A stretch of DNA of 64,000 nucleotides from Thainema sp. (GCA_052168235.1 JBQLZK010000004.1:1-64000), one strand, 5' to 3'. Shown: positions 13,059 to 47,666, numbered from the stretch's first letter. Notes: a model not told the origin generated them from the sequence alone. Made by a program: numbers and translations.

Positions 13059-13685
13059 ATGGAATGGCACGTGACGGATGCTCAGAGCTTGCGAATTATT
13101 GATCGTGAAATTGGCGAACACACCTTTTCTCCATCGGAGTACGAAATTGTCCGACGAGTGATCTATGCAACGGCTGACTTTGAATACAAGTCGCTGGTGC
13201 GGTTCTCGGATCAGGCTCTACAGGCCGGAGCAGCGGCGCTAGCTGCCCGCAGTACGATTGTGGTGGATGTGCCGATGGTGCAGGTCGGCATTGCCCAGCG
13301 CATTCAAGACACGTTCGCCAATCCGATTTACTGTAGCCTGGATGCTCTCACCCGTCCCCAGCGCCGCAAAACCCGCGCCGCTTGGGGTACAGAGACTCTA
13401 GCTCGCCGCTATCCCGAAGGTGTTTTTGTCGTCGGAGAAGCTCAGACCGCGCTAGAGTCCCTGGCCAACTTGATTGAATCTGGTGAGATTCGTCCCGCGC
13501 TAGTAATTGCCACACCTGCTGGATTTATCAACACCGAGCAGGCTAAACAGCGGCTGCAAGACCATCTGATTCCGCATATTCGCATTGAAGGTCGCAAAGG
13601 TAGCTCTGTTGTTGCTGCCGCCATTGTCAATGGCCTAGTGGATCTGGCATGGCAAGCCTACGGGCATGAGCGGAAAAGTCCTTGA
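13059..13685 (+). CDS. cobH: Precorrin-8X methylmutase (CobH/CbiC) family protein
   Basis: RRVIYATADF, DVPMVQVGI, GRKGSSVVAAAIVN. Confidence 0.8.
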   Translation: MEWHVTDAQSLRIIDREIGEHTFSPSEYEIVRRVIYATADFEYKSLVRFSDQALQAGAAALAARSTIVVDVPMVQVGIAQRIQDTFANPIYCSLDALTRPQRRKTRAAWGTETLARRYPEGVFVVGEAQTALESLANLIESGEIRPALVIATPAGFINTEQAKQRLQDHLIPHIRIEGRKGSSVVAAAIVNGLVDLAWQAYGHERKSP

Positions 13686-13704
13686 ATCATAACTTCCAGA
13701 AAGA

Positions 13705-13736
13705 CGATCTGGCCGCCGCATGCGGCGGCCAGATCG
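13705..13736. terminator. Palindrome between convergent genes, probable bidirectional terminator
   Basis: CGATCTGGCCGCCGCATGCGGCGGCCAGATCG. Confidence 0.6.
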
Positions 13737-13763
13737 CCTTTTGAGGCTTTTACTTAGGCGAAA

Positions 13764-16700
13764 TTAGGCAAAACTCTGCACTTGGCTCAGCATTCGCTCT
13801 ACCCAGGCTGCGTCAAAAATGATGCTGTAAATGCGGTTGTGGGCGACTAAATAGCCCTCCTGCTGGATTACCAGCCCCGACAGCAACAGCTCCATTTGAC
13901 CGGGATAATCGGAAACATGAAGGCTTTCCTGCTGGAGAATGCGACGATAAAGTTCAAGCTGCTGGGCCGCTTGTGGACTGGACAAAATGCGATCGCGGAT
14001 TGTCCGCAAATGTTCAGGCTCATCATTCAGCTCCCAGTTTTTGATAATCTGCTCCTGCACTAGGTCGCTGATCCACTCCTGTTCATGATTGGCCGAGATT
14101 GTGATGTGGGAACCGCGAATTAGCTTACAAATTTTCTGCGTTAAAAACGGCTGACCGTTTGTCCAATACAGAATTTCCCGCAGCACCGCCTGTGGATTCG
14201 CCACCTTTTCCGCCAAACCATAAAGCAGCGGCTGGGCCTCGTGGATTTGGAAATCTTTAAGCTGAATCGCCTCACCAATGTTAAACGGGGTGCGGGCTTT
14301 ATCATGAATCAACTGCGACGGGGTTGCGACGCCAAACAGGGCAAAGGTCAACCGCTGATAATTGGCATCATCCGCCCGCTTGTTGTAGCAGGATCGCAGC
14401 AGGACAAAAAAGTCATCAATCTCAAAATCAAGATTAATCACGCTGTCAATTTCGTCAATGAAAATCACAATTTTTTGGCTAATTTGCCCCAGCAGCACCT
14501 GATGAATAAACTCACCCAGTCGCTGCACGGGCGACAGCAATTCGCGATCGCGCCACCACTGGCGAATATCCACTTGACCTAACAGGTCAAAATTGGTTGC
14601 CAGCGTATACAAAAATCCGGCATACCACTGCTCCGGAGAGAGCCGCCGATTACCAATCTCGGAAATATCAATCGCCGCACAGGCAAACCCTTCCGCCTCT
14701 AACCGCCGCATCATCTGCACCCGCAGGCTCGATTTACCCATCTGCCGCGCATTCAGCACATAGCAAAACTTACCCTGCTTTAGTCCTGCATATAAATAGC
14801 GATCGGCCTGTCGCACCACGTAGGTCGGCGCATCCAGCGGTAAACTGCCGCCCACCTGATAATCGAACTGTTCCGCCGCTTCATCACTCCGCAGCAGCGC
14901 ATTTTCAATCATCAGTTCCGCTTGGGTCGCCTTGAGGATTTGCAGCGTTTCTGACAACTTGCGAGTCCGTTCCTCTACCCGCTCTTCCAAAATTTCTTTC
15001 TGCCGCCGCTGATCGGTGATGTCGGCAATAATGCCCTCGTAGTAGAGCAGGTGGCCGTCTTCACTTTGTACAGCCCGCGTATTCTCTTCCACCCAAATAA
15101 TTGAACCATCTTTGCGATAGCTCTGATACACCAGATTTTTGACCTCGCCATATTGCGTCATCCGGCGCTGAAACTCTTCCTGATCTGCCGGATCAACATA
15201 AATTTGCTGCTCAATATTATCAACGCTATCGATCATCTCCTGCGGTGAAGCGTAACCATAAATGCGCGCCATCGCTGGATTGATCCGAATAAAACTACCG
15301 CTGGGCGTGGACTGAAAGATACCTTCCAGCGCATTCTCAAAAATGCCCCGATAGTTTTGTTCCGCAATCCGCAACGCCGCTTCCGCTCGCTTCTGTTCGG
15401 AGATGTTGCGGATAATCATCAGCACCTCATCTTCACCTGTCACTACCATCCGCACTTCTTCGTACTGGACGTGACCGTCAATATTGAGCTGCTGCTCATA
15501 GACCTGCATCGCCCCGGTTTCTAATGTGCGCTGAATGTAGTGCATCCGTCGCTGCGCCTCGACGGGCGGCAGAGAATCATAGACGCTGCTATTGACTTGG
15601 AAATCTGGGCTGTCATGAATCGAGAGGCGGTTACGTCCCTGAATTTCGCGATAGATGCCATCGTGACTGACGCGAATCAGTAAATCAGGCATAGCCATAA
15701 TCAATGCCCGCTGGTTTGCCTCACTCAGCCGCAAAGCATTCTCCGCTTTCAACCGCTCGGTAATGTCGATGCCTGCGCCAACTAGAAACGCCTTGCCATC
15801 AATCATCATGGAGCGACCCGTGACAAAGTAAGGAATAATGTCCCCAGCTTTCGTCAGCAGATGCGTTTCAGCGACCGCTCCCTCTTCCGTAAAGGCCTGT
15901 TGAAAACGGCGCGCAATCAGATCGCGTTCGAACTCGGCCACTGTATCCAGCACGTGTACAGGGTTTGTCGCCAGCTCAGTCTGGGAATAGCCTAGAACTT
16001 TCGTAAATAGCTTGTTCCAGCGAATTAAGTAGCCGTTTTCATCATAGAGATAGAAAATACCGGGCATGCTGTCGATGATGTTGTCAGATACCTGTTTTTC
16101 CCGGCGCACCTCGGCCTCGGCCTGTTTGCGATCGGTGATATCCCGCACAATTACCAACACTTCATCTTCATTCAGGGGAATTAAGCGAGCTTCGTCAAAC
16201 TGGTGCTGACCATCAACCTCAATCTCGTATTCATAGATTTGTAGCTCATTCGTTTCTAATGCCCGCTGCACATAGTGCATGCGCTCGTCGGCATTCGCTT
16301 TTGGCATCGTGTCGTAAATGCTGATGCCAACCTGCATGGAATCTTCATTCAGAGTTTTTGTCGTGCGGCCTGGATTGAAGCCGGAATAAGTTCCATCCCG
16401 CCGAATCCGCAGCAGTAAGTCAGGAATGGCACTCACGATGGCTTGGTTTGTTGCCTGAGCCTGCCGTAAATCTTCTTGAGCCTGTCGCTCTTCGGTAATG
16501 TTGATGCCGACAATCACAATCGCTTTGCCCTGCTGGTATTTCTGAGCCGCCAGCAGGTAGTAAAACACCTGGTCGCCAACAGGAATAGGAATTTTGTCAA
16601 TAGCAGAGTTTTCGTTGCTGTCTAAAAACCGCTGAATAAATTTGACATAGTTTGGACTATTCCCCACAATGCCCACTCGTTGTCCCACCATATCTTCTGG

Positions 16701-18155
16701 ATCGAGATTGAGGGTACGGGCCAAGTGGGAGTTAATACCCAAGTAAACCCCATCGGATGAGATCCAGGAAATTGGCCCCGGCACAGCATCTAAAACCGCT
16801 TCTAGCTGATCTTTTGCTTCCGCTAACTGGTTTTTGGTCGCTTCTAGATCGGCATTCCGCGCCTCTAGCGCCATAAATGAATCCTGTAGCTGGCTGGCCA
16901 TTTGGTTAAACGATTGGGCTAGGCCACTGAGTTCGTGGGTGCGCTGCACATCGACCGGCTCATTCCAGCGGCCCAGGGCAATTTTCTTGGCCGCCTCGTT
17001 TAAGCGCGAAATGGGGCGGGTAATCCATTGAGCCGTCAGTGCGCCAATTGTAATCGCCACCAGCATGGCGACAAAGTAGAGGATTGCCGTTTGCCGCGCG
17101 CCATCTTGAATGCGGCCCATGAAGTCGGCTTCGGGAATGACAACGACAATCAGCCAGTCAATGCCACGGTTGTCATCAAACGGCACGACCTGAACAAACT
17201 GCTGTTCGCCATCTAAATCGAATTCCAGTTGCTGAGGCTGATGAATATGGGTAAGTCCTAGAGCGCTGGCGTTGAGATAAGCTGCGGTGCCGCTGATCAA
17301 CGGGTCACTGCTGTCTATGGCTGCACGATATTCAAAATCGTTCTCATCACTGACTGCCACGATGTCTTCGTCAGTAGACGTGGCGACCAGATTGCCGGAG
17401 CGATCCATGATAAACGTTTGACCGGATTCGCCCACCTTTAGCGATCGCAAAAATTCGCTCATTTCCTTCGGCAGGACAAAATCGGTTGCACAGACCCCCA
17501 GCACTTGTTTGCTGCCCGGTTCGTACACGGGATAACTGGCGGTCAGAGTGGGTAACAGACTATCAAAGTCAAGATAAATTTCGCCCCAGGTCGCGCCCCC
17601 TTTGCTTTTTGCTGCTTTGTACCAAGGACGCTGGCGAGCATCATAGGGCTTTTCCCAAATGTCTTTCAAAAACGTGCGTTCCCCAGTGCTGCTGAGGGCG
17701 TAGTAGTACCCAAAATAGTTGGTTGATTGGTTGTAGATCTGGAGCTGGGGCATTTTGTCCCCTTCGCGTTGCCCTACGCCCAGCAGCGAACCGTCTTTTT
17801 CTAGGCCACAGTAAATTAAGTTGGTGTTGGGATAGATTTTGGCCTGCTCCCACAGTTGGTTAAACCCTTCACCATTGGCCACGTCTAAATCGCCATTGAG
17901 CAACGCACTGGCATTAATTCGGTTAATCGCGTGGGGCACTTCAACATAGGAAAAAAGCTGTTGCTGAATCCGAGCTGAAATTTCGGTGCGGAGCTGCGAG
18001 GACAAATCACGTACGGTGGCCTCACTATGCCGAAAAGAAATGTAGCCGACGAGACTAACCGTGACCGCCAACTGGGCGATAAACGGCACCACCAACACGG
18101 TTCGCATCGGAGCTTGCCGAATTGAAGTGAGCAGAGAAAACGTCAGGCGGCGCAT
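13764..18155 (-). CDS. Membrane sensor: TM-Cache-TM-HAMP-~5xPAS-coiled coil-AAA_35 (STAND-like) NTPase
   Basis: YDARQRPWY Cache motif, HAMP (PISRL...[12 protein letters not shown]), repeated DITE/DRK PAS ends, then [16 protein letters not shown] Walker A, FIDEID Walker [12 protein letters not shown]. Confidence 0.85.
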
Positions 18156-18259
18156 AGGTGAGACAGCCTCTCAGGCTAGGGGTGAGTACATCGTAAAGCC
18201 CTGCGATCGCAAATAGCCAACAACGACAGCCAATAAAGACAGTCAAAGGAAGCCAAACG

Positions 18260-19636
18260 CTACTGGGGCAGTGCGTTCAGGCGCTCACTAAAGTAGCGGC
18301 TATAGAGTTCGCAACTGGGAATTGCCTGATTACTTTGTAACCGAACCAAACCGAGACTCTGCAATTTAAAGGCTTGGGTTAAATCCAGGTTAACGGGCTG
18401 TTTCGCCGCAACGACCTGAGCAAAGGCCGCAGATAGATCGCTATTTTGCTGGAGACTCCAAAGCTGACGCTGGAGATGATCTTCATAAATGCCAGATGCG
18501 ATCGCACTTGAGTTGATCACTTGCTCAAACGTCACGTCCTGATGCCATAGGTGATAAAACGCCAGTTGTACCAGATATGGATAGCCCCCCGTAAACTGCA
18601 TCAGCTGCTCATTCTGTACCGCTGACCATGCCAGTTCATACTTTTGGGCCAAGTCACACACCTGCTCTGGACTCAGCGCGTCCAGTTCAACCGGCAAGCC
18701 CACATTAAACGGCGACTTATTCACATTCAGCGGGATATAAACCTCGGTCGAATGCGCCACCACCAAGCGCAACTGCTTCCAAATATCGCGATTTTTGGCT
18801 TCTTCATGCCAAGCCCGCAGTAATCCAAAGAACTCATCGGCTAAATCGGGATACTGGAACAATCGATCTACGTCGTCTAGTGCCAGTACCAGCGGCTGAT
18901 TTAGCTTGGTCAGAATATATTGCTCAAAGTAGATCTTGCAGCTAATCTTGCTGCCAAATAGGTCGTCCCAATACTCATTCAGCTGATTAGGCAGGTGAAC
19001 CCCCAAGCCCACATTGGCGCAAAACCAGCGCAGAAACAGATCAAGATCTTCAAAAATGTCTTTGTCCGCCAGCTGGAAACTGAGCGAAACGGTTTTACAT
19101 CCCTGCTGGGCTGCTCGATGCAGAATGCGGGACAGCAGCGACGTTTTGCCTACGCGACGAGGTGCTTTGATGCGTACCAGGCCACCCGGCTGCAGCACCG
19201 TTTTGTAGCACTCTGGCTCAATTCCCGCACGCTCAACGTAGAACGTCGAGCCAATAGGAACCTGGCCTCCAGGCGGATCGGGCTCTAGGTCACCGCTCAC
19301 CATTTCGTCAGCTAGATCGCTATCGGTAGCGCCCGCGCTGCCTTCAACCTCCACGTCATCTAAATCATCCGGATAAAAGAAATCGCCAGTGTCTAACGTC
19401 AGGTTAAAGGCGCGAAAACAGTACTTTAGCGTTTGCTTATCGACCTTGGATTCGCAGGCCAGCACTTTCATCAGAGTATCAACGGCGAGCCCAGTTCGTT
19501 CACTTAGCGCTTCCAGCGTGTAGCGATTACCGTGGTTATTTTCAAATTCGGCATCGGTTTTGGCTTGCTGTAACTTGTCAAAACCCTGCGGCGTCAGGAT
19601 GACGCCCCGCCGTCGCCGTCGCTTTGGTTGATTCAT
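18260..19636 (-). CDS. HTH-like N-terminal domain plus AAA_35 NTPase
   Basis: RRGVILTPQG, YTLEALSERTGL..TL.KV helix-turn-helix; PGGQVP..S.FYVER, KAPRRVGKTS, LDDVD, SPFNVG, GGYPYLV. Confidence 0.85.
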   Translation of the reverse strand: MNQPKRRRRRGVILTPQGFDKLQQAKTDAEFENNHGNRYTLEALSERTGLAVDTLMKVLACESKVDKQTLKYCFRAFNLTLDTGDFFYPDDLDDVEVEGSAGATDSDLADEMVSGDLEPDPPGGQVPIGSTFYVERAGIEPECYKTVLQPGGLVRIKAPRRVGKTSLLSRILHRAAQQGCKTVSLSFQLADKDIFEDLDLFLRWFCANVGLGVHLPNQLNEYWDDLFGSKISCKIYFEQYILTKLNQPLVLALDDVDRLFQYPDLADEFFGLLRAWHEEAKNRDIWKQLRLVVAHSTEVYIPLNVNKSPFNVGLPVELDALSPEQVCDLAQKYELAWSAVQNEQLMQFTGGYPYLVQLAFYHLWHQDVTFEQVINSSAIASGIYEDHLQRQLWSLQQNSDLSAAFAQVVAAKQPVNLDLTQAFKLQSLGLVRLQSNQAIPSCELYSRYFSERLNALPQ

Positions 19637-19741
19637 GCTGGTTCCCTATTCGATCTGACCCATTCACACGATGTTTCAAAGTCTAGTATTGAGGAATTCT
19701 GCATTCTGCTGAAGATTTTTTTCAAAATCAACATATTCAAG

Positions 19742-20560
19742 CTAGCGCCGAGAGAAAAATGTATACGCCGCAAATGCGATCGCAATCATCGAAAACGAAA
19801 ACAGGGTAGTCAATGTGCCCAACGCATAGAGAGCGGGCGAGGTGACATTGGTTGTCATGCCAAAAATTTCCAGCGGCAGCGTATTATCCTGACCCGAAAT
19901 CAGCGACGTGCGGGTGAACTCATCATAGGACAGCGTAAAGGTGAGTAGTCCCACCCCAATTAAACTCGGCCCAATCAGCGGAAACACAATTTCCCAGAAC
20001 GTGCGACTATCGCCCGCCCCCAAATCCTTGGCCGCTTCTTCGTAGGACGGGTTAAAGCGATTAAAAATGCCCAGCATAATCAAAAACGCGATCGGCAGCG
20101 TCCAGGTTAAATGCGCTCCCAGTCCAGACGAAAACCAGTTGGTAGTGACACCTAGAACCTGGAAAACGACGCCAATGCCCAGAGAAATCAGAATACTGGG
20201 CACAATTAGACTGGAAATCGCTAGATAGAACAGCGCCGTCGATCCCTTGAATCGACTACGAAAGGACATACTGGCCATCACCGAAAACGCTGCCGCGATC
20301 ACCATGACCACGATGCCTAAAATTAGCGATCGCTGAAACGGTTCAACAAAATTACCAACCCGCTGCTCTTGGAAAACCTGGCCCAACCAGTAAAACCCAA
20401 AACTTCGCACCGGAAAGGTCAGCGTTCCATCTGGCCCCTGAAGCGACAGGATGAAAATCGTGAACATGGGGCCATAGAGAAAAATCACAAACAGCCCAAA
20501 GAACGCGGCCAAAATGTAAAACGAGAGCGGCTTTTTCCTGAGTTCCATGAGTTTACTCAT
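19742..20560 (-). CDS. ABC transporter permease (PotC-like)
   Basis: EEAAKDLGA EAA loop, SYDEF, TLPL; start set at ATG 20560 because the longer ORF runs through a repeat. Confidence 0.88.
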   Translation of the reverse strand: MSKLMELRKKPLSFYILAAFFGLFVIFLYGPMFTIFILSLQGPDGTLTFPVRSFGFYWLGQVFQEQRVGNFVEPFQRSLILGIVVMVIAAAFSVMASMSFRSRFKGSTALFYLAISSLIVPSILISLGIGVVFQVLGVTTNWFSSGLGAHLTWTLPIAFLIMLGIFNRFNPSYEEAAKDLGAGDSRTFWEIVFPLIGPSLIGVGLLTFTLSYDEFTRTSLISGQDNTLPLEIFGMTTNVTSPALYALGTLTTLFSFSMIAIAFAAYTFFSRR

Positions 20561-20575
20561 CAGTAATATGTGTGA

Positions 20576-20706
20576 TAAGGATTGTGAATTCAATAAGTTC
20601 GATATTGCGTAGGGGCGGGTTTCGCCGTCAACTCTATGACATGGTGCAGATTGGTCTACTAAACCCGCCCCTACAATTTGCCAATTTATTAAATCCACGC
20701 TCCTAA
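20576..20706. mobile_element. MITE/REPIN-like element: ~21-bp imperfect TIRs around a GTAGGGGCGGGTTT REP doublet (20609-20674)
   Basis: TAAGGATTGTGAATTCAATAA ... TTATTAAATCCACGCTCCTAA; REP arms identical to those at the RAYT locus. Confidence 0.7.
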
Positions 20707-20741
20707 GCGACCTGTAGGTTCCATCTAGAAGCAGCAGCTTT

Positions 20742-21599
20742 CTACAGCTCTTTGCGAATATCCACAACCCGCAAAATTGAAATTACCAGCATCATCGTCA
20801 CAATCAGCAAAATGACGGCATTAGCCGCCGCTAGGGGATACTGCAAGCTGCCAATTTGGGTCTGAATCAGCTTGCCAACCGATGCCGCCTGTCCCCCACC
20901 CATCAGGCGCACCGTGACAAACTCACCCATCACTAGCGTCACGATAAAAATGGAGCCGATCGCAATACCGGGAGCCGACAGCGGCAGAACAACTTCTTGA
21001 AATACCTGCAATCCCGATGCCCCCATATCCTCAGCAGCGGTAACTAATGTGCGGTCGATTCGCATCAGGCTGTTGAAAATCGGCGCAATCATAAAAATGA
21101 TATAGAGATGCACCATCCCCAGCACCACAGCAAAATCAGAATACAGCAAGAACTCCAGCGGCTGATCAATGGCTCCCACACCCAGCAGCATCTGGTTAAC
21201 CAGTCCCTCTTTGCCCAGCAGTGGAATCCAGGAAATCATGCGAATGATATTGGATGTCCAAAAGGGAATGGTACAGAACAAAAAGAGAAAAATTTGCCAG
21301 CGCAGATTAGTTACATGAAAGGATAAAAAATAAGCCACTGGATAGCCAATCAGCAGCGTTGCTAACCACACCAATCCCACGAACTTGAAGGTATTCAAGT
21401 ATGTTCTCAGCGTCACATCGGAGCTGAAAATGCCTTTGTAGTTATCCAGCGTGAATGCTGGTGTCATGGAGTAGCCGTTGAACTGCCAAAAACTGACAAT
21501 CCCGATCATCAAGATCGGAAAAACCAGAAACAGCAGAAACACCAGCGTCTGCGGCGTAACCAGGAAATAGGGCTTAAGCGCTTTCCAAGTGTTAGACAT
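20742..21599 (-). CDS. ABC transporter permease (PotB-like)
   Basis: IPFWTS.IIR, AAEDMGA EAA loop, multiple TM segments. Confidence 0.9.
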   Translation of the reverse strand: MSNTWKALKPYFLVTPQTLVFLLFLVFPILMIGIVSFWQFNGYSMTPAFTLDNYKGIFSSDVTLRTYLNTFKFVGLVWLATLLIGYPVAYFLSFHVTNLRWQIFLFLFCTIPFWTSNIIRMISWIPLLGKEGLVNQMLLGVGAIDQPLEFLLYSDFAVVLGMVHLYIIFMIAPIFNSLMRIDRTLVTAAEDMGASGLQVFQEVVLPLSAPGIAIGSIFIVTLVMGEFVTVRLMGGGQAASVGKLIQTQIGSLQYPLAAANAVILLIVTMMLVISILRVVDIRKEL

Positions 21600-21612
21600 A
21601 GTTCAGATAGGA

Positions 21613-22920
21613 TTACGACGCGATAAATTCGTTCCACTTCTGTACGAGGTAGGTATTCTCGGCCATTGTTGAGTTCCAAACGACGATATTGCCGAAGCGT
21701 TCATCGAAGGTACCACCATCTCGCACAGCCCCTTCTTTTTCGAGTGTCTTATCGAATGGGTCAACCATTGGCTCAGAGGCTGGCTTGCCTTCATACCAGA
21801 AGGCCCATTCTGCCTCAGACATATACTGCTTGGCCGTTTCCGGTGCCGCGCTGTAGTAGCCCTGGCGACCAAGGAAAGCACCCACCCAGCCATTTAGCAT
21901 CCAGTTGATATACTCATAGGCCGCGTCTAGCGCAATACCTTCCAGGTTCTTCGACAAACCAATGCCGCCGCCCCAGCCGCGATAGCCTTCTTTCAGCGGA
22001 GCATAAACGCACTCAATACCTTGGGACTTAACTGCTGTCACCGCTGGCGACCACATGGATTGTAGGACGACTTCACCAGAAGACATCAGGTTGACCGACT
22101 CATCAAATGTCTTCCAGAAGGCTCGGAACTGGCCTGCCCGCTTCTGCTCTTTTAAGATTTCGGTCAGCTGGTCAATTTCGGCTCTGGTCATGTCGCCTTT
22201 GTCGCCGAAGGTCATTAAACCCAAGGCTTCCACCACCATTGCTGCATCCATGATGCCAATTTGAGGAATGTCGAGGATAGAGGTTTTGCCGCGAAACTCT
22301 TCGTCAAATAGGTCACCCCAGCTTTGGATTTCGCGACCCACTAAGTCGGGTCGATAGCCTAGCGTATCGGCGTTGTACTGGAAGGGGATTAGAGTAGCGT
22401 AGTCCGTTGGCCCATCAGCAAATTCAGCCGAATCGGGGCCTGTCAGATACATCACTTTGTAAGGTGTCGTGCCCTGGGACTGTTCAACCGGCATGCCGTT
22501 GAATTCACCCGTCCGGAAGAAGGAAACGATTTTGTCCCAGTTGGTGATGCGGCTAATTTCAATTGGCCGTAAATTACCAGAGGGCACTACCAGCGGCAAG
22601 CTGAAGTACTCACCGTCAAAGATGTCGTACTGTTTCGGCTGAGTGATGGCAATCTGGTTATTTTCTTCAGTACTCAGGGCCCGCATTTCCAGATTGAAGC
22701 CCAGGTCTTCTTTGGCTTTATCCCGAATTTCGTTGATCTGAGAAACGCCTGTGCCGATGAAGCGAAGGGTGACATCCTTAATTTGGTTGGTGTTGACCTC
22801 TGGGCCAGTAGCCGGATTGTTGGGCGTGCCCTTGGGCGCAGACGAGCAGCGAGTTGCTGTTAAGAAAGCACTAGCAGCAAGACCCGTTTGAATCATTCGG
22901 CGACGAGAAATTTTAGACAT
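21613..22920 (-). CDS. PotD/PotF-like substrate-binding protein with Tat signal
   Basis: SRRRMIQ twin-arginine signal with Cys; NADTLGYRPDL, SMWSPAV, KEGYRGW. Confidence 0.85.
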   Translation of the reverse strand: MSKISRRRMIQTGLAASAFLTATRCSSAPKGTPNNPATGPEVNTNQIKDVTLRFIGTGVSQINEIRDKAKEDLGFNLEMRALSTEENNQIAITQPKQYDIFDGEYFSLPLVVPSGNLRPIEISRITNWDKIVSFFRTGEFNGMPVEQSQGTTPYKVMYLTGPDSAEFADGPTDYATLIPFQYNADTLGYRPDLVGREIQSWGDLFDEEFRGKTSILDIPQIGIMDAAMVVEALGLMTFGDKGDMTRAEIDQLTEILKEQKRAGQFRAFWKTFDESVNLMSSGEVVLQSMWSPAVTAVKSQGIECVYAPLKEGYRGWGGGIGLSKNLEGIALDAAYEYINWMLNGWVGAFLGRQGYYSAAPETAKQYMSEAEWAFWYEGKPASEPMVDPFDKTLEKEGAVRDGGTFDERFGNIVVWNSTMAENTYLVQKWNEFIAS

Positions 22921-22987
22921 GGTTGATTTTGAGTAGTAAGTTGACGAAACGTGATCAAGAATTCAGGTGAGCCCGTGAGTGGGCCAG

Positions 22988-24163
22988 TTAATGGGGGAGA
23001 TAAATGCAGTATTCTGCGGGCCAGTCGAGGACGACAACTTGGCCTTCCTGCATGGGTTCTCGCATCCAATCGTGGGTTCTGACTTTGTAGAGCACCTCCT
23101 GTCCAGTTTTTTCAAGCGCAAGGGAGACGCGGGTGACATAGCCTGTAAATTCAATGGCTGTAATTCGAGCTGTCACTCGGTTTGTGGCCGATGTAATCGG
23201 CAGATTGCCTGCGATCGCAATTGGGTGAGGGACTAGATGATCGGCACGAACGCAGCAAGCGGCTTTCGTGCCCGCTTGGGCAAACTCACCTCGACAGCAC
23301 AGAATTCCAAGACCATCAACGGCTAGCTCAATCAGATAGCCCTGGCCGTCTTCGGTCGCTTTTTGCACCACGCCGGAGAAAATATTGTTGTCGCCCGTGA
23401 ACTGAGCGACAAACCGAGAGATGGGGCGTGAAAAGATTTCTTGGGGCGTACCAACTTGATCCAATCGGCCATGATCCATGACCACAATTTGATCGGAGAG
23501 CGAGTAGGCTTCGTCCTGATTGTGGGTGACTTGAATAAACGTCATGCCGAACTGGCGCTGGAGCTTGCGCAGTTCGCCGCGCGTTTTGACCCGCAGGTTT
23601 TCATCCAGGGCGCTGAGCGGTTCGTCCAGCAGCAGGACTTGGGGACGAGTAATCAACGCACGGGCCAGCGCCACCCGCTGCTGTTGTCCACCGCTGAGCA
23701 TATTGGGTTTGCGATCGCTAAATTTCTCTAGGCCCACAATTTCCAACATTTCCTGAACGCGCACTTTGCGCTCATCGGCGGGCACCTTACGCATTCGGAG
23801 GCCAAACTCGATGTTTTGCCACACGGTTTTGTGCGGAAACAGAGCGTAGTTCTGAAACATCATGGCGGTGTTGCGCTTGGCCGATGGCAAGTTGTTAATC
23901 TTGGTATCGCCAATGAAGATCTCCCCTTGCGTGATCTCTTCATGACCCGCAATCATCCGCATGGTGGTCGTTTTACCGCAGCCGCTCGGCCCCAGCAGAC
24001 AGCAGTACGATCCAGCCGGGATATCTAAGGTGATGTTTTCAACGGCGGTGAACGAACCGTATTTTTTGGTAACCGAACGGAGGGAAACCCCCTGTGCCGT
24101 AGTCTGAAACGGAATTGAGGCTGAGTGTTCAGCGCTAGAAGAAATAACTTGAGCGTCCTGCAT
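22988..24163 (-). CDS. ABC transporter ATP-binding protein (PotA-like)
   Basis: [34 protein letters not shown]-like C-terminus. Confidence 0.93.
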   Translation of the reverse strand: MQDAQVISSSAEHSASIPFQTTAQGVSLRSVTKKYGSFTAVENITLDIPAGSYCCLLGPSGCGKTTTMRMIAGHEEITQGEIFIGDTKINNLPSAKRNTAMMFQNYALFPHKTVWQNIEFGLRMRKVPADERKVRVQEMLEIVGLEKFSDRKPNMLSGGQQQRVALARALITRPQVLLLDEPLSALDENLRVKTRGELRKLQRQFGMTFIQVTHNQDEAYSLSDQIVVMDHGRLDQVGTPQEIFSRPISRFVAQFTGDNNIFSGVVQKATEDGQGYLIELAVDGLGILCCRGEFAQAGTKAACCVRADHLVPHPIAIAGNLPITSATNRVTARITAIEFTGYVTRVSLALEKTGQEVLYKVRTHDWMREPMQEGQVVVLDWPAEYCIYLPH

Positions 24164-27183: not shown

Positions 27184-28275
27184 ATGATCTATGCAAAAGC
27201 AAGGATAGATTTATCACGCTCCTATCATCAACCGTTAGGCCAACCATCAGACCGATTGAATCAATTCGGACAGCCACTATCAGTTGATTCTCCTTTCTAC
27301 ATTCAGCGCAACTTATGGGAAGAAACTGTAGGTGAAGAACTACAGAAACCTGGTAGCCTACTGCGAATTCGTGCTTGTCCCAAGATGGGTAAAAGTTCGC
27401 TGCTTTTACGCTTAATTAGCCAAGCTGCTGCTGCTGGTATAACAACTGTGCAGATTGACTTTAGGCAACTTTCCAACTCTCACTTCAGTGACCTGAATGA
27501 GTTACTGCGCTGGTTCTGCACGGAGATTACACGTCAGCTTGGTCTAGAGTCCAATTTGGAGGACTATTGGGATGATGAAATTGACAGTAAATTAAGCTGC
27601 ACGATTTACTTTGAGAATTACCTGCTGGAACAGATTGATAAACCACTGGTAATTACTCTGGATGAACTAGATTGGATTTTTGAGCAGCCTGCGATCGCAC
27701 ATCATTTCCTCGCCCTACTCCGGTTTTGGTACGAGCTAGCTCAGCGCGCTGGTGACTGGCAAAAGCTGCGGTGGATTCTGGCCTACTCTAGCGAAATATC
27801 AATACCGTTGCGGGTGGATCAATCACCATTCAACATTGGCTTACAGTTGAATCTGTTTCAGTTTACGCAGGAACAGGTGCATGAACTTGCTCAACGCTAC
27901 GGTTTCAACTGGCAGGAAACAGATGTGAACCAGCTCATAAATATGGTGGGGGGGCATCCTTATCTTGTACACGCAGCGATTGCTCATCTCGCTCATAATC
28001 CTGAATTAAAACTCAGCCATTTGCTGGAACAGGCCGCTACGCCAGCCGGAATCTATCAGTCTTATCTACAGCGCTGCTGGTCCATCGTTATTCAGCAGCA
28101 ACCGCTGGTTGCTGCGATACAAGCTCTTGTGCGAGCAAAAGGAACCTATCAAATTGCATCTCGCTTTGCCTATCACTTGGTTAGTTTGGGTATTATTCAA
28201 CCAGCAGGCAGCCTAGACTATCAGTTTAGCTGTCAATTGTATGCCGATTATTTCCGCCATAGATGCGAAATTTGA
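27184..28275 (+). CDS. Stand-alone AAA_35 NTPase
   Basis: DSPFYIQR, RACPKMGKSS Walker A, LDELD, SPFNIG, GGHPYLV; homologous to 18260-19636 but lacks its HTH. Confidence 0.85.
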   Translation: MIYAKARIDLSRSYHQPLGQPSDRLNQFGQPLSVDSPFYIQRNLWEETVGEELQKPGSLLRIRACPKMGKSSLLLRLISQAAAAGITTVQIDFRQLSNSHFSDLNELLRWFCTEITRQLGLESNLEDYWDDEIDSKLSCTIYFENYLLEQIDKPLVITLDELDWIFEQPAIAHHFLALLRFWYELAQRAGDWQKLRWILAYSSEISIPLRVDQSPFNIGLQLNLFQFTQEQVHELAQRYGFNWQETDVNQLINMVGGHPYLVHAAIAHLAHNPELKLSHLLEQAATPAGIYQSYLQRCWSIVIQQQPLVAAIQALVRAKGTYQIASRFAYHLVSLGIIQPAGSLDYQFSCQLYADYFRHRCEI

Positions 28276-28492: not shown

Positions 28493-31400
28493 ATGATGGA
28501 ATCTGCGTTTTGCTATCAAGTTGGGGGTAGCCTTGCTCCCGAAGCCGCATCCTATGTGCAGCGGCAAGCAGATGAGGCGCTGTTTGAAGCCTTGCTAGCC
28601 GGACAGTTTAGCTACGTACTCGACTCGCGCCAGATGGGTAAGTCATCGCTGATGGTGCGCACCATTCATCGTTTAGCCCAAGCAGGAGTGCGCTGTGCTG
28701 CTGTTGATATTACCAGCCTGGGCAGTGATCAAACTACACCCAGCCAGTGGTATCGCGGTATGGTGGCTGACCTCTGGCGTAGCTTTAAGCTGTTTGGCCG
28801 CGTCAATTACAAAACGTGGTGGCACGAACAGGATGATTTGTCTCCTGTGCAAAAACTGCATTATTTTTTGCGCGATGTACTGCTGGAGCAGTTTCCGGCT
28901 GATCAGCTCTGTATATTTATCGACGAAACGGATAGTGTTCTCAGCCTTGGCTTCTCGCTCGATGACTTTTTTGCCCTCATTCGGTTCTGCTATAACCAGC
29001 GCAGTATTGACTCCACTTACGAGCGTTTGACCTTTGCCATTTTGGGTGTCGCCACGCCATCTGATCTGATTCAAGATAAAGTACGAACCCCATTTAATAT
29101 TGGTCAAGCGATCGAACTGCAAGGGTTGCAGCTTAATGAAGCTTACCCACTACTGCCGGGTCTGATGCCCGATCGCGAACAGGCTCAACGCGTGCTAAGA
29201 GAAGTGCTGATCTGGAGCGGTGGCCAACCGTTTCTCACTCAGAAATTGTGCAGTATTATCCGGCAGGTGAACCATGACCTAGCCAATAATGCAGCCTTTC
29301 TGCCAATTCAGGCTGAATCACTGTGGGTCGAAGCACTGGTGCGCGATCGCATTATTCATCAGTGGGAAGCCCAGGATGAACCGGAGCATCTCCGGACGAT
29401 CCGCGATCGCATCTTACGACCCGATAACCGGATTGGCCGCCGTTTGGGCATTTATCAGCATATTTTGCAACACCAGTCTGTCCCGCTTGATCAAAGCTCT
29501 GCCCAAACGAATCTACTGCTGTCCGGACTCGTCAAAAAACAAGCTGGACATCTAGTTATCAAAAATCCCATTTATCAAGCTGTGTTTAATTTGGACTGGG
29601 TGGATGAGCAACTGGAACAGCTGCGTCCCTATTCTCAAACCTTTAGCGCGTGGATTGCTGCAAAACGTCAAGATCAGTCGCGGCTGCTGCGGGGACAGGC
29701 GTTACAAGAAGCTCAACTTTGGGCCAGAGACAAAGTTCTGAGCGATGCTGACTATCAATTTCTGGCAGCCAGTGAAGCCTGCGATCGCAAAGAAGTGCAG
29801 CAGGCCTTAGAAGCCGAACGGTCAGTTGCGATCGCAGCTCAGCTCCAGCAGCAGCAGCGGCATAATCGGCTCCAGAAGAAGCTGTTAGGAATTATCGGTG
29901 CGGCCTGCTTGGTTTCTGCTGGTTTAGGGAGCATTGCCGTCAGCGAATCTTATCGCGCTCAAGCCAATGAACAGCGAGCGAAAGAAAGTGAAGTAGACGC
30001 GCTATTGGCTTCTGCCCAAGGCTGGTTCGATGCGGGTAGGCGGTTAGATTCTCTGATTCAAATACTCCACGCTGATCAGCAACTGAGGCAACTGCGCCAG
30101 CCTAATCCAGAGTTAATCGATCAGACCGATGCCATGCTGCGACGGATTATCTTTGGCATCAACGAGGTGAACCGATTTTCAGGCCATACTGGCGAAATTC
30201 AGCAAGTACTCTACAGTCCTGATGGTCGTCTGATTGTCTCTGCCAGTGAAGATGCAACAGTCAAACTCTGGCGACCTGACGGCAGACTATTGGCGACGCT
30301 GGCAACACACGATCAGCGAGTTTCCGCGATTCAATTTAGCCCTAACGGTCAAATGTTGGCTGCTAGCGGTGGCAGTGGCACAATCCAACTTTGGCAAACC
30401 ACAGGAGAACTGCTAAATACGATCAAGGCTCATCGTACCCCGGTGATTAGTTTGGGATTCAGCCCGGACGGAAATACGCTAGCCTCTGGCAGTATTGGTG
30501 GAACAATTCAACTCTGGCGACCGGATGGTACGTTGCTGCGCACCCTAGAAGGTCATCAGGCAATGGTGCGGGCCGTGGTTTTTAGTCCTGATGGTCAGAT
30601 GCTTGCGTCTGCTAGTGCCGATACCACGATTAAGCTGTGGCAACCGGATACGGGGCAGCTCATCACTACGCTGAATGGGCATACATCTACGGTGACGAAT
30701 TTGGTCTTCAGTCCCGATGGTCAGCGCATTGCTACTTCTAGCTCTGATAATACGGTGCGGATCTGGAGCCGCAGTGGTGAATTGCTCAAGACGCTAGTGG
30801 GTCACACCTCAGCAGTGACCAGTGTTTGCTTTAGTCCTGATGGCCAAATGCTGCTGTCAACCAGCGAAGATCACGAAGTCCGCTTTTGGCAACAGGATGG
30901 AACGCCGATTTTGGCTTTCCCAGGCATTACAAACGTCGGCAAGTCGATTGACTTTAGTCCTGATGGTCAATATCTAGTGTCATCGGGTCGGGGCGATGAG
31001 CAAGCAGTTCTACTCTGGAAATTTGATTCGCCTCTTTATTCCGTCTGGAGTGGACATACCGCTGCAGTTTTGGCGTTAGCCATGAGTCCCGACGGAAGCA
31101 TTCTAGCCTCCGCAGGTTCCGATCAGACAATTAAACTCTGGCAGAATGATGGCACGCTGCTATCCTCGGTCAAAGCCCACAATGCACCCATCGTGAAGCT
31201 TGCGTTCAGTCCCGGTGGACAAACCTTGGCGTCCACCAGTTTTGATCGCCAGTTGAAACTCTGGAAGCAAGATGGCGCTCCAGCAGCCATGAACCAGTTA
31301 CAGTTAACGGCCCAAAGCGGTTTAGTCTTCAGTCCTGATGGTCGAACGCTTGCAGTAAGCGATGTTGATCAGTCAATTAAGCTCTGGCATTGGGACAGCC

Positions 31401-32029
31401 AAACGGTTACAGATATTCCGCTGGATTTAGATACCTTAATCTATAACCTAGCCTGGCAGCCCAACGGTAACCAGATTGCTACGGCAAACCGCGATCGCAC
31501 TGTTCAACTCTGGCAATCCGACACAGGTAAAAAAATTGCAACTCTAACAGGACACACAGAAGCGGTTCGCAGTGTGGCCTATAGTCCCGACGGTGCGCTG
31601 CTGGCTTCGGCCAGTGCTGATAAAACCGTTAAACTCTGGAATCCAGCAAATGGTTCGCTGATTCGCACGATAACGGGACATACCGATGGACTTTGGGGGC
31701 TGGAGTTTTCCCCCATTGCCTCGGATGCCTCGGGGCTACCATCCATTTTGGCCTCAGCCGGAAACGACAAGACGATTAAACTCTGGAATCCGGCAGATGG
31801 TTCGCTGCTGACCACCTTGTCTCGCCATACGGCGATTGTGCAAAGCGTGGTGTTTAGCCCTGACGGACAGACGCTCTATTCGTCTAGTGGCGATAAAACT
31901 ATCATTCAGTGGGATCTTGACCCAATCCTGAATCTCGATCCAGTAGACTATGCCTGCAGTTGGCTAGCAGATTATTTAGCGAATAATCAAAATTTGAGTA
32001 ACCGCGATCGCGCTCTCTGCACCTACTAG
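28493..32029 (+). CDS. AAA_35 NTPase - TM helix - 14 WD40 repeats
   Basis: [61 protein letters not shown]; 14 GH...FSPDG...KLW-type units. Confidence 0.92.
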   Translation: MMESAFCYQVGGSLAPEAASYVQRQADEALFEALLAGQFSYVLDSRQMGKSSLMVRTIHRLAQAGVRCAAVDITSLGSDQTTPSQWYRGMVADLWRSFKLFGRVNYKTWWHEQDDLSPVQKLHYFLRDVLLEQFPADQLCIFIDETDSVLSLGFSLDDFFALIRFCYNQRSIDSTYERLTFAILGVATPSDLIQDKVRTPFNIGQAIELQGLQLNEAYPLLPGLMPDREQAQRVLREVLIWSGGQPFLTQKLCSIIRQVNHDLANNAAFLPIQAESLWVEALVRDRIIHQWEAQDEPEHLRTIRDRILRPDNRIGRRLGIYQHILQHQSVPLDQSSAQTNLLLSGLVKKQAGHLVIKNPIYQAVFNLDWVDEQLEQLRPYSQTFSAWIAAKRQDQSRLLRGQALQEAQLWARDKVLSDADYQFLAASEACDRKEVQQALEAERSVAIAAQLQQQQRHNRLQKKLLGIIGAACLVSAGLGSIAVSESYRAQANEQRAKESEVDALLASAQGWFDAGRRLDSLIQILHADQQLRQLRQPNPELIDQTDAMLRRIIFGINEVNRFSGHTGEIQQVLYSPDGRLIVSASEDATVKLWRPDGRLLATLATHDQRVSAIQFSPNGQMLAASGGSGTIQLWQTTGELLNTIKAHRTPVISLGFSPDGNTLASGSIGGTIQLWRPDGTLLRTLEGHQAMVRAVVFSPDGQMLASASADTTIKLWQPDTGQLITTLNGHTSTVTNLVFSPDGQRIATSSSDNTVRIWSRSGELLKTLVGHTSAVTSVCFSPDGQMLLSTSEDHEVRFWQQDGTPILAFPGITNVGKSIDFSPDGQYLVSSGRGDEQAVLLWKFDSPLYSVWSGHTAAVLALAMSPDGSILASAGSDQTIKLWQNDGTLLSSVKAHNAPIVKLAFSPGGQTLASTSFDRQLKLWKQDGAPAAMNQLQLTAQSGLVFSPDGRTLAVSDVDQSIKLWHWDSQTVTDIPLDLDTLIYNLAWQPNGNQIATANRDRTVQLWQSDTGKKIATLTGHTEAVRSVAYSPDGALLASASADKTVKLWNPANGSLIRTITGHTDGLWGLEFSPIASDASGLPSILASAGNDKTIKLWNPADGSLLTTLSRHTAIVQSVVFSPDGQTLYSSSGDKTIIQWDLDPILNLDPVDYACSWLADYLANNQNLSNRDRALCTY

Positions 32030-45782: not shown

Positions 45783-47666
45783 ATGCCAAATTCTGAGTCT
45801 CAGTCCTCTAGGCAATCTGCGATCGCACAACAGTGGGTGCAATCGCCCCTTCAATTGGCAGTTTCTCTGGAGCAAAAAGGTAGCCTCCGCACCAAGATCA
45901 TGCGTGGCTACGTATTGGCATTGGGCATTGCAGTGTTCGGTACCACAACCGGATTAATCATCGGCAATCAGCTCCAGCAGCGAGCACTGGCGGCCCGGAA
46001 TGCCGCTGCTCGCGAGCGCCAACTGGTCAATCAGCTCCAGGTTGATATTCTCTATAACCGTCCGGCCAAGCAGCTTTCTCCTTACTTGCAGGAGCCACAG
46101 CGCTTTCGGCAAGAGAGCCGCGCCATGATCGAGCGAATTGATGGGATTCAGCAACTGCTGCGGCAGCAAAATCAGTCAGAGGAGCCGCTACAGCTTCCAG
46201 GTTTACAGTCGCTCCTCACCGAATACGAGCAGAGCGTTCAGGTCTTTTCCGGCAAACTGGAGACTGCGATCGCACAATTATTACCGATGACGGCTGATCC
46301 AGCCCAGCGAGTTCAGGCTGAGCAGACGCTGCTGAATTTGGTCAGAAGTCCAGAGTTTGTGGCCTTCATTGAGTTTCCCGACCAGCTCGTCGAGTACAAC
46401 AACCGCGCCACCACGCTAGAGCGAGCCGCCGAAACAAACCTGCTGCGAGCTGAAACGCTGCGCATGCAGATTATTATCCTGAGCTTAGTGATGTCGAGTG
46501 CGATCGCATTTGTACTGGCTTTGCGTACCAGTCGAATTATCACGCAGCCACTGCAGCAGGTGACGAGCGTGGCCCAACAGGCCGCCAAAGAGTCCAATTT
46601 TGATCTGCGGGCCGATGTTTACACCCAAGACGAAGTGGAAACCCTGGCGCAGTCTCTGAATCAGCTAATCGAGCGGGTCAAAGTCTTACTGGCCGAACAG
46701 AGGGCGGCAGAAGCGCAACTAGTACATAGCGAGAAAATGTCCAGCTTGGGGCAACTGGTGGGAGGCGTTGCCCATGAGGTGAATAATCCAGTCAACTTTA
46801 TTCACGGCAACCTCAACCATGCTGGAGCCTACGCTGCCGATTTGCTCGACATCATTGAGCTTTATCAACAGCATTACCCTCAACCCGCAGATGCGATCGC
46901 AGAAAAACTGGCCGATGTTGACTTTGAGTTCATCCGCAGTGATTTACCCAAGCTGTTCACCTCCATGCAGGTTGGCACCGATCGCATTCGTAAGATCATC
47001 GCGTCCCTTCGCACCTTTGCCCGTTTGGATGAAGCTGAACGGAAAACTGTCGATATTCACGAAGGGATTGACAGCACGCTGATGATTTTGCGTAATCGCC
47101 TGAAAGTCCATCAGCCACCGATTCAAGTCGAAAAACACTACGGTTCACTGCCGCTAGTCGAGTGCTTCCCCAGTCAGCTCAATCAGGTGTTTATGAATAT
47201 CTTGATGAATGCCGTTGATGCACTGGAAAGTTGCGATCGCACTCCCTTGACTGACTATTACGATCAGCAAGCGAATACCATCACAATTTCCACCTCTATT
47301 TGCAGTGCAAACGGTCGTTCCTCTGATGAGAAATTCGCGCCCAACCCTGAGGTCAGTCAGTTCGCTACTCTCCCGATCGAGCAAGCCTGGGTTGAAATTC
47401 AGATTTCGGATACTGGCTCTGGTATTCCAGCCAATATCCGAACCAAATTATTTGATCCGTTCTTTACGACGAAACCAGTCGGCAAAGGCACAGGACTCGG
47501 CCTCTCCATCAGCCACCAAATCATTGTTGATATGCATCGCGGCCAGCTCGACTGCGAGTCCACACCAGGTCGAGGTGCAGCATTTATCATCCGCATCCCC
47601 GTCCGCCAACCGAAGATGTCACCCAGTGCGATCTCCGCATCGGCCCCCCAACCCACAGCCGTTTAA
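45783..47666 (+). CDS. Membrane sensor histidine kinase with HAMP
   Basis: EKMSSLGQLVGGVAHEVNNP, QVFMNILMNA, DTGSGI, FDPFFTTK, GTGLGL. Confidence 0.95.
   Translation: MPNSESQSSRQSAIAQQWVQSPLQLAVSLEQKGSLRTKIMRGYVLALGIAVFGTTTGLIIGNQLQQRALAARNAAARERQLVNQLQVDILYNRPAKQLSPYLQEPQRFRQESRAMIERIDGIQQLLRQQNQSEEPLQLPGLQSLLTEYEQSVQVFSGKLETAIAQLLPMTADPAQRVQAEQTLLNLVRSPEFVAFIEFPDQLVEYNNRATTLERAAETNLLRAETLRMQIIILSLVMSSAIAFVLALRTSRIITQPLQQVTSVAQQAAKESNFDLRADVYTQDEVETLAQSLNQLIERVKVLLAEQRAAEAQLVHSEKMSSLGQLVGGVAHEVNNPVNFIHGNLNHAGAYAADLLDIIELYQQHYPQPADAIAEKLADVDFEFIRSDLPKLFTSMQVGTDRIRKIIASLRTFARLDEAERKTVDIHEGIDSTLMILRNRLKVHQPPIQVEKHYGSLPLVECFPSQLNQVFMNILMNAVDALESCDRTPLTDYYDQQANTITISTSICSANGRSSDEKFAPNPEVSQFATLPIEQAWVEIQISDTGSGIPANIRTKLFDPFFTTKPVGKGTGLGLSISHQIIVDMHRGQLDCESTPGRGAAFIIRIPVRQPKMSPSAISASAPQPTAV

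Follow-up and report, generated by a model that had tools for sequence, protein, structure and literature searches.

A cyanobacterial Cache-HAMP-PAS receptor ending in an AAA_35 NTPase, and its paired AAA_35 partner, as a candidate split STAND-like switch

What becomes of a membrane chemosensor when a putative nucleotide switch stands in the place of its kinase? The question is raised by a gene at positions 13764-18155 of a 64,000-nucleotide stretch of DNA from Thainema sp. (GCA_052168235.1 JBQLZK010000004.1:1-64000; the window). Its product, P0001, bears the input domains familiar from sensor histidine kinases and closes with an AAA_35 NTPase domain (Pfam PF14516). An earlier note on this DNA, made from the sequence alone, had proposed that extracellular ligands and PAS input directly control an NTPase switch, and that its likely partner is a helix-turn-helix (HTH)-AAA_35 protein encoded just upstream on the same strand, the two forming a phosphorylation-free signalling system. 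The upstream AAA_35 gene is indeed there (18260-19636, 458 amino acids; product P0002). On balance we are inclined, with modest confidence, to regard the two genes as encoding one split sensor/effector switch with a transcriptional output, built from NTPases like those of the STAND (signal-transduction ATPases that have numerous domains) class.

The order of parts first read in P0001, namely a transmembrane (TM) segment, Cache, a second TM segment, HAMP, about five PAS units, a coiled coil and AAA_35, is confirmed by exact open reading frame coordinates, by Pfam and by hydropathy (Table 1). In the extracytoplasmic region Pfam matches dCache_1 at residues 158-339 (57 bits, cut-off 45) and MCP-like_PDC_1 at residues 144-226, and several PAS families are matched between residues ~575 and 1048. 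The AAA_35 match, at residues 1103-1446 (104.3 bits, cut-off 27; profile positions 4-328 of 331), is the last domain of the protein, with nothing after it. HisKA, HATPase_c, GGDEF and WD40 are all without a Pfam match in P0001 at E<=0.01, in agreement with the earlier reading of a terminal AAA_35 that lacks HisKA, GGDEF and WD40. The protein has neither the HisKA/H-box nor the HATPase_c of a sensor histidine kinase, and it leaves the kinase consensus at residue 1085. The NTPase motifs had been described as intact, and they are: Walker A at G1140-K1141-S, Walker B at D1234-E1235 (IDEID) and a GQP at 1334-1336, followed by a C-terminal part that is winged-helix-like in a predicted model (predicted local distance difference test score, pLDDT, 74.8). 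The PAS array has its own history. Unit 3 (15747-16121 of the window, residues ~679-803) is absent from a 1339-residue orthologue, P0034, and is thus an insertion; between units 2 and 4 the identity is 42.5% (E 4e-37). The array has therefore undergone recent remodelling in the lineage of P0001.

Between the fifth PAS unit and AAA_35 lies a helix that meets a published description. In the part of the signalling-helix (S-helix) survey available to us, the S-helix is a coiled coil some 40 residues long that bears an ERT signature at its centre and lies between a sensor and an output domain, and the outputs named are kinases, cyclases, PP2C, NtrC-type AAA+, GGDEF, HD-GYP and EAL (PMC1592074). P0001 has the ERT signature in just this position, and the segment is kept in 19 of 20 aligned cassettes. 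The host genome (7.54 Mb in 205 contigs) has 37 histidine kinases of EKMSSLGQLVAGVAHEINNP H-box type, with the motif ...TQxQLIQxEKMSSLGQLVAGVAHEINNP; one of them, at 45783-47666 of the window, reads ...AQLVHSEKMSSLGQLVGGVAHE. The earlier note had observed that in kinases this helix runs into EKM.SLG..AHE, as it does at 45783-47666 and across the 37. For comparison, residues 1055-1084 of P0001 were set without gaps against the 30 residues that precede EKM in each kinase, with residue 1085 facing the E of EKM. In this register the mean BLOSUM62 score was 33.1, with 8.6 identities in 30 (maximum 14), and a shift of 1-7 residues either way lowered the score to between -25.6 and +2.0. The helix of P0001 is therefore homologous in register to the pre-H-box helix of the kinases up to residue 1084.

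The same exchange is found on a second chassis. Five proteins of the genome (L035-L039), which are among the 37 kinases, are giants of 1811-1965 residues with the order Pkinase-AAA_16-GAF(-PAS)-HATPase_c, and three loci from the wider search (L026, L030 and L033) encode Pkinase-AAA_16-GAF(-PAS)-AAA_35. One pair of such giants, kinase against AAA_35, is 37% identical over 1748 columns from the N-terminus, and the AAA_35 domain of L030 starts at residue 1722. To judge by these alignments, AAA_35 sits where the kinase output would, a swap that appears on two chassis, and the replacement of the kinase output claimed earlier is well supported by the in-register helix and by the parallel giants that end in HATPase_c or AAA_35. 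The helix is no kinase-specific device. The nearest non-orthologous relatives of PAS5 plus helix have as outputs HisKA or HisKA_3 with HATPase_c, class III cyclase, GGDEF/EAL, HD-GYP and SpoIIE, and in several of them an RVEERT helix joins two PAS domains; because of these varied outputs and PAS-PAS links it is best seen as a general plug.

A search with residues 1060-1463 of P0001 among proteins of 804-2561 residues gave 7898 candidates at E<=0.001 out of 8000 scored, and architectures were read from the best 120 clusters (the query and 119 others). HAMP, PAS and AAA_35 occur together in 29 of the 119, at 73-92% identity, and 26 of these 29 have dCache_1 as well. They include Leptolyngbya ohadii, Leptolyngbya sp. 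FACHB-671, PL-A3 and AN02str, and orthologous loci were found in named Leptolyngbya, Elainellales and Coleofasciculaceae assemblies. The architecture search suggested in the earlier note thus shows a fusion by no means confined to this assembly. A protein kinase domain is present in 52 of the 119 clusters, and an ammonium transporter with HisKA, HATPase_c and receiver in nine. Ahead of S-helix and AAA_35 we find dCache-HAMP-PAS, REC-PAS, PAS-GAF, Amt-HisKA-HATPase-REC and Pkinase-AAA_16-GAF(-PAS), and yet helix, linker and NTPase are kept together, with a mean column identity of 72% in 20 C-terminal modules from loci of differing architecture. Constant behind unrelated inputs, the S-helix and B-type AAA_35 (the type is defined below) appear to act like an output domain. 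Where REC or HisKA-HATPase-REC precedes it, phosphorylation can feed the same cassette, so that the idea of a phosphorylation-free system stands for P0001 by itself and fails for these sister forms. The sole cassette locus outside the cyanobacteria is L033, in a metagenome-assembled genome labelled Acidobacteriota; its product is a giant of the order Pkinase-AAA_16-GAF-AAA_35 with 47% identity, and either transfer or mis-binning could account for it.

The partner gene is part of a wider rule. In the host genome 18 AAA_35 matches fall into eight loci and into two types: A-type matches score 355-514 bits and lie at the protein C-terminus, and B-type matches score 83-131 bits. At all eight loci an A-type gene lies directly upstream of a B-type gene on the same strand. 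The A proteins carry caspase plus TIR, TIR, CHAT plus TIR, weak HTH or unassigned heads; the B proteins carry WD40 (three), 3xGAF, 7TMR-HDED-7TM-HD, short tails or, in P0001 only, an N-terminal sensor array. Recognisable effectors are absent from the B proteins as a class, and sensors from the A proteins. Across the family, then, labour is divided, with the sensor on B and the effector on A. The pair of HTH-AAA_35 and sensor pointed out in the earlier note is real; the larger A/B family, with its TIR, caspase and CHAT heads and its WD40, GAF and 7TM sensors, had been overlooked.

The family is present in 17 of 21 related genomes, where counts were taken from the listed matches with 21 weaker ones left out. 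A B-type gene lies within 12 kb of 51 of the 73 A-type matches, either directly downstream (38), 1-6 kb downstream (5) or in another arrangement (8); it is farther off in two cases, and 20 have none on the contig, many of these contigs being small. Conversely, 53 of 66 B-type matches have an A-type gene within 12 kb. For receptors of the P0001 kind, 28 loci with its C-terminal module were found, of which seven end too near the gene, leaving 21 assessable. An A gene is present at 19 of the 21, which bears out the co-occurrence of the HTH-AAA_35 partner that a neighbourhood analysis was expected to reveal. In 16 it immediately precedes the B gene on the same strand, with a stop-start overlap of 4 nucleotides in L008, L009 and L013, and at two loci it lies 3.1 kb upstream with three genes between.

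The two types separate cleanly in a tree of 60 domains (26 A and 34 B), in which the A/B split has a Shimodaira-Hasegawa-like approximate likelihood-ratio (SH-aLRT) support of 100. The module of P0001 falls in a 22-row clade of sensor-fused B domains (support 97) and that of P0002 in a 16-row clade of ~450-residue A proteins (support 100). Subclades of the HTH-A and sensor-B clades mirror each other; the cross-genome correlation between A and B (r 0.96) is confounded by species descent.

Other A/B pairs differ from this one in their heads and sensors. A second pair in the window consists of a 363-residue A-type protein without an N-terminal head (27184-28275, plus strand) and, 217 nucleotides on, a 1178-residue protein (28493-32029, plus strand) with B-type AAA_35 at residues ~12-263 and then WD40 repeats. 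Six more pairs, L001-L006, lie on contigs C61, C23, C33, C105, C77 and C13. They include a caspase+TIR A protein with two B genes, one of them for AAA_35-7TMR-HDED-7TM-HD; a TIR A protein with AAA_35-3xGAF; a CHAT+TIR A protein with AAA_35-WD40; and pairs of HTH-like or unassigned heads with short B proteins. These six look like cell-death or conflict modules of the kind formed by nucleotide-binding leucine-rich-repeat (NLR) receptors. In the A protein of the pair on C13 (L006:6196-7671, minus strand) an insert of ~37 residues rich in Pro, Ser and Gly, placed in the C-terminal part of AAA_35, splits the Pfam match in two. At L019 (5638-8685, Nostoc sp. ATCC 43529) and L020 the three genes between HTH-A and the PAS-GAF-AAA_35 gene encode a CHASE4-HAMP-SpoIIE phosphatase, a 201-residue protein without a Pfam match and a 116-residue STAS/SiaC-like protein, a partner-switching cassette inside the A/B pair.

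Both NTPase modules keep their nucleotide-binding motifs. All 60 aligned AAA_35 domains have an intact Walker A; at Walker B every one of the 34 B domains has DE, 22 of the 26 A domains have D[DE], and the HTH-bearing A proteins of the P0002 clade all read LDDVD. P0002 itself has GKT and LDDVD, to be set beside the GKS and IDEID of P0001. In the helical part all 20 aligned B modules share GQP (G275-Q-P277 of the alignment), and across 40 A proteins G351 never varies and P353 hardly does. Leipe, Koonin and Aravind reportedly defined STAND NTPases in 2004 by a P-loop whose Walker A reads GK[ST] and whose Walker B reads hhhhD[DE], a three-part module (nucleotide-binding, helical and winged-helix) like that of Apaf-1, CED-4 and NLRs, and NTP-dependent oligomerisation, and a conserved GxP in the helical subdomain is a further mark of the class. 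The Walker A and Walker B patterns are present in both partners. The structures nearest to the two modules are the archaeal proteins PAB2304 (2qen) and SSO1545 (2fna), ORC/Cdc6, CED-4, Apaf-1 and plant NLRs; the MalT structure 8bob, NRC and RPP1 are also among the fold matches. The predicted models of both appear compatible with a STAND/ORC-like unit of nucleotide-binding domain, helical domain and winged helix, and the STAND-like character ascribed to P0001 from the start agrees with these folds and motifs.

The assignment of P0002 as effector depends on its head. Its orthologues, ~450-residue cyanobacterial proteins, are 60-93% identical over 97-100% of their length, and its AAA_35 match is strong (residues 122-451, 486.5 bits, profile positions 2-331). 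The head is strongly conserved among these orthologues, and its predicted model has helices at residues 16-33, 41-48, 52-59 and 67-75 (pLDDT 85-95). Signals from HTH models among 39 family members are weak: HTH_3 in six (best 2.5e-7), HTH_26 in five and HTH_31 in four; a profile of the head against PDB gave a weak match to 3pxp, 'HTH domain protein' (E 0.06). An XRE-like HTH is weakly suggested by these matches. A scan of 1.84 billion representatives with the head gave 488 proteins at E<=0.001, of which 35 were scanned for domains: eight carry AAA_35 (one with a cyclase), 12 NB-ARC/NACHT, and 11 are WD40 giants, with an NTPase visible in one; the others are one FGE-sulfatase protein, one with HTH_3 only and two that are uninformative. 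Individual examples are P0364, P0367, P0373, P0397 and others, which are NB-ARC/NACHT and ~1200-residue WD40 proteins, the AAA_35-cyclase protein P0469 and the FGE-sulfatase protein P0421. By these domain matches it appears to be a head that several cyanobacterial NTPase families have in common, and as it tops AAA_35, NB-ARC/NACHT and WD40 proteins it would occupy the effector place of STAND proteins. In the DNA from 13400 to 20000, promoter and terminator scans gave no excess over shuffled sequence (9 against 6.5±2.8 and 3 against 7.2±2.7, respectively). A functional link to the upstream ATP-binding cassette (ABC) sugar-transporter genes (19742-24163) was considered and rejected, these being kept only in L007, of the same genus, and not in L008-L034.

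Table 1. Parts of the P0001/P0002 locus, in window coordinates
Feature	Position	Strand	Description and basis
Sensor-partner gene P0001	13764..18155	-	1463-residue open reading frame: TM-dCache-TM-HAMP-5xPAS-S-helix-AAA_35 (B-type); ORF call, translation, Pfam
First TM stretch	18033..18107	-	residues 17-41; hydropathy window, maximum 2.09
Extracytoplasmic double Cache region	17094..18032	-	residues 42-354; Pfam; flanked by both hydrophobic stretches
Second TM stretch	17019..17093	-	residues 355-379; hydropathy window, maximum 2.31
HAMP	16881..17036	-	residues 374-425; Pfam HAMP 50.6 bits (cut-off 25)
Array of five PAS units	15000..16838	-	residues 440-1052; Pfam and NCBIfam PAS matches, self-comparison, alignment
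S-helix	14886..14999	-	residues 1053-1090, ERT signature 1061-1063; sequence, alignment
B-type AAA_35 NTPase module	13767..14873	-	residues 1095-1463; Pfam, alignment, motif table, structure model, tree
Effector-partner gene P0002	18260..19636	-	458 residues; N-terminal HTH-like domain and A-type AAA_35; directly upstream of P0001
N-terminal four-helix domain of P0002	19367..19612	-	residues 9-90, after RRRRR arm; putative divergent XRE/Cro-type HTH; predicted model
A-type AAA_35 module of P0002	18263..19288	-	residues 117-458; Walker A G163-K164-T, Walker B D254-D255, GGxP 350-353
Spacer between P0002 and P0001	18156..18259	-	104 nucleotides; holds GCGATCGC octamer; no terminator-like sites called

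It is tempting to suggest how such a switch might work. P0001 would be the sensor half, a membrane receptor dimerised through HAMP, PAS and S-helix like its kinase cousins. A ligand at the outer double-Cache region, together with cues sensed by the PAS units, would act through HAMP on the S-helix, which would set the state of two B modules instead of driving the DHp/CA core of a kinase. On stimulation the B modules would change nucleotide state or conformation, and would recruit or release A modules by contact between the NTPases, like a sensor NLR with its helper NLR or like MalT in its self-assembly. P0002 would be the effector half, a paralogous A-type module with an XRE-like HTH head, and assembly of A would set the oligomeric state of the HTH heads, toward or away from DNA, and with it transcription. 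For A-B binding, its dependence on NTP and the direction of the signal the model is STAND assembly and the sensor/helper NLR pairs; P0002 would be expected to bind DNA and to control target genes.

Several observations weigh against this proposal. Contact between A and B, on which it turns, is something we infer by analogy. Residues 1-105 of P0002 gave no match to any Pfam family, HTH models included, at E<=0.01. The upstream DNA of 16 A genes yielded no operator-like word that is conserved; the words that recur there are the cyanobacterial GCGATCGC and A/T-rich words, in at most five of the 16. The neighbours of the window pair, CbiC and an ABC sugar transporter, recur in a relative of the same genus and nowhere else among the loci, and because nothing beyond A and B is conserved past the genus no target gene can be named. 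At one sensor-fused locus, L026, the A gene is convergent, and the locus DNA examined around the two Pkinase giants L030 and L033 contains no A gene. Within the genome the correlation between the distance matrices of A and B is modest: depending on which B gene of C61 is chosen, r is 0.41 (p 0.14) or 0.56 (p 0.018). Finally, tandem fusions join like with like: A-A in 10 clusters (HTH-A-A, ~750 residues), B-B in 11 and B-B-B in two (P0003-P0021, P0123-P0132), while no A-B (Rosetta-stone) fusion was seen among 239 relatives in the two length windows searched. Some of the B-B and B-B-B proteins also carry CHASE2, TPR or PAS. From this pattern of fusions like may bind like, and in place of a simple A-B ring the working unit may consist of two B modules that together engage an A dimer or oligomer.

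The company kept by the family brings to mind another role, that of a conflict module (anti-phage, abortive-infection or kin-discrimination), in which the HTH head would be an adaptor or the switch of a defence programme. Six other pairs of the genome have death-type heads (caspase+TIR, TIR, CHAT+TIR) or WD40 sensors, and the head of P0002 is found on NB-ARC/NACHT-WD40 proteins and one FGE-sulfatase protein; such architectures are described as typical of conflict systems in the sections of two studies at hand (PMC7159879, PMC8195603). The pair itself behaves otherwise: HTH-A and sensor-B are 60-93% identical across many cyanobacterial genera in a stable architecture, unlike fast-varying defence genes, and the inputs are classical signalling modules (Cache, HAMP, PAS, GAF, REC, ammonium transporter). 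In PADLOC-DB 2.0 neither P0001 nor P0002 matched any family and there was no system-level match; sister A proteins match only via their caspase, CHAT and TIR parts. We regard a conflict role for this pair as unlikely.

Alternatively, the AAA_35 of P0001 might act alone, as a homo-oligomeric output under S-helix control, either an ATP-dependent scaffold or a winged-helix DNA binder, and A would then be a co-regulated paralogue that makes no contact with it. The like-with-like fusions and the two giants without an A neighbour speak for this, and an S-helix implies a parallel dimer that already joins two B modules, going by the S-helix survey in the part available (PMC1592074). It leaves unexplained why in most genomes searched A and B are still neighbours, although the duplication that parted them is old (the split of support 100), why stop and start overlap at three loci, and why one class has sensors and no recognisable effector and the other effectors and no sensor. 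There is perhaps a small chance that it is correct.

The flow of signal might also be reversed or inhibitory, with A as a nucleotide-dependent regulator or anti-activator of the receptor, or simply as the transcription factor of the operon, and the AAA_35 of P0001 reading nucleotide or energy state. Nothing in the sequence sets a direction, and the variation of Walker B in A, set against its strictness in B, means that the two halves probably differ in hydrolysis. The cassette nevertheless sits after an S-helix, the place of catalytic and output domains in what we have of the S-helix survey (PMC1592074), and REC and kinase-REC lie upstream of it. We consider a reversed flow quite improbable. 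Misassembly, or a dead fusion of recent date, can be dismissed as the origin of the gene, for the frame is open for 1463 codons, all motifs are intact, the architecture recurs in 29 further clusters from several sources, including named relatives, the partner gene is present at 8 of 8 assessable dCache-type loci, and nothing was found in favour of either.

If P0001 and P0002 do form a split STAND-like switch, the cyanobacteria would possess a large and overlooked family of receptors: the best 120 matches alone include 52 Pkinase giants, nine ammonium-transporter fusions and 30 Cache-HAMP-PAS receptors. Censuses of signal transduction count kinases, cyclases, GGDEF/EAL and chemoreceptors, which AAA_35 outputs would escape, and so the only names that annotation at present gives these receptors are 'PAS domain S-box protein' and 'AAA-like domain-containing protein'. 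The S-helix would be able to drive a nucleotide switch of STAND/ORC type, NLR-like sensor/helper pairing would be older and broader than immunity, and one input chassis bearing either a kinase or AAA_35 would offer a handle on how a coiled coil controls a nucleotide-binding oligomerisation (NOD) module. More tentatively, and as a generalisation that we do not yet hold to be probable, AAA_35 A/B pairs might constitute a third signalling currency beside phosphotransfer and second messengers. B would activate A by module assembly, a prokaryotic form of sensor/helper-NLR logic; B could be plugged in behind any S-helix, A could carry HTH, TIR, caspase or cyclase, and the same chassis would serve environmental sensing and death or immune decisions.

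In the literature we came upon no mention of PF14516 and no description of paired AAA_35 genes or of S-helices fused to AAA_35, though further supplements or subscription papers could contain them. The main texts of PMC7159879, PMC8195603 and PMC13581612 do not name AAA_35, nor do 12 of the 13 files that supplement PMC8195603, and a search on 'AAA-like domain-containing protein' yielded nothing on the function of the AAA_35 family among the matches listed. The closest published genomic concept is nSTAND2, likewise an adjacent pair of STAND-type NTPase genes: in the text accessible to us it is a mobile two-gene operon of two STAND NTPases, a proposed hetero-multimer with effectors fused to one partner, in which one partner has eroded NTP-binding motifs and carries GT4 or HEPN, and examples come from Pseudomonas and E. 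coli with TPR (Kaur, Iyer, Burroughs and Aravind 2021, PMC8195603). Going by that description the AAA_35 pair is set apart, since it belongs to another family, both partners keep Walker A and Walker B, neither GT4 nor HEPN is present, its hosts are cyanobacterial and its inputs come from signal transduction.

Sensor histidine kinases share with P0001 the input chassis and the S-helix, in register up to the H-box, and they too have a separate partner of DNA-binding type, putatively so in P0002; they possess HisKA/H-box, HATPase_c and a receiver partner, all lacking in P0001 and P0002, in which coupling would be from NTPase to NTPase and not by phosphotransfer. NtrC-type AAA+ proteins, counted among the S-helix outputs in the portion of the survey at hand (PMC1592074), likewise place an oligomerising P-loop ATPase that controls transcription after a sensor and S-helix. 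Their ATPase belongs to another clade and shares one chain with the HTH, whereas here these functions would be split over two proteins. PAB2304, SSO1545 and Orc1/Cdc6, of which the last bind origins, are fold matches at 10-16% sequence identity, and to our knowledge they have neither sensor fusions nor paired paralogous genes.

Sensor/helper NLRs and NAIP-NLRC4 are paralogous NOD proteins that share out sensing and execution and are often encoded by adjacent genes. The resemblance lies in the sensor on one paralogue and the executing head on the other; NLRs, however, are cytosolic immune receptors with leucine-rich-repeat sensors and death or channel outputs, whereas the Thainema pair has an extracytoplasmic input of chemoreceptor type and a putative HTH head, and would rely on A-B contact. 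MalT, with AfsR and GutR, is a STAND transcription activator of the LAL type (large ATP-binding regulators of the LuxR family). In MalT, as is proposed here, a nucleotide-binding oligomerisation module with helical and winged-helix parts puts a DNA-binding domain under the control of a sensed ligand, but it does so within one chain, whose LuxR-type HTH is C-terminal and whose repeat sensor is soluble, where the present system has two paralogous AAA_35 NTPases and a transmembrane Cache-HAMP-PAS input joined through an S-helix. MalT-type STAND activators and paired NLRs are, between them, its closest working analogues.

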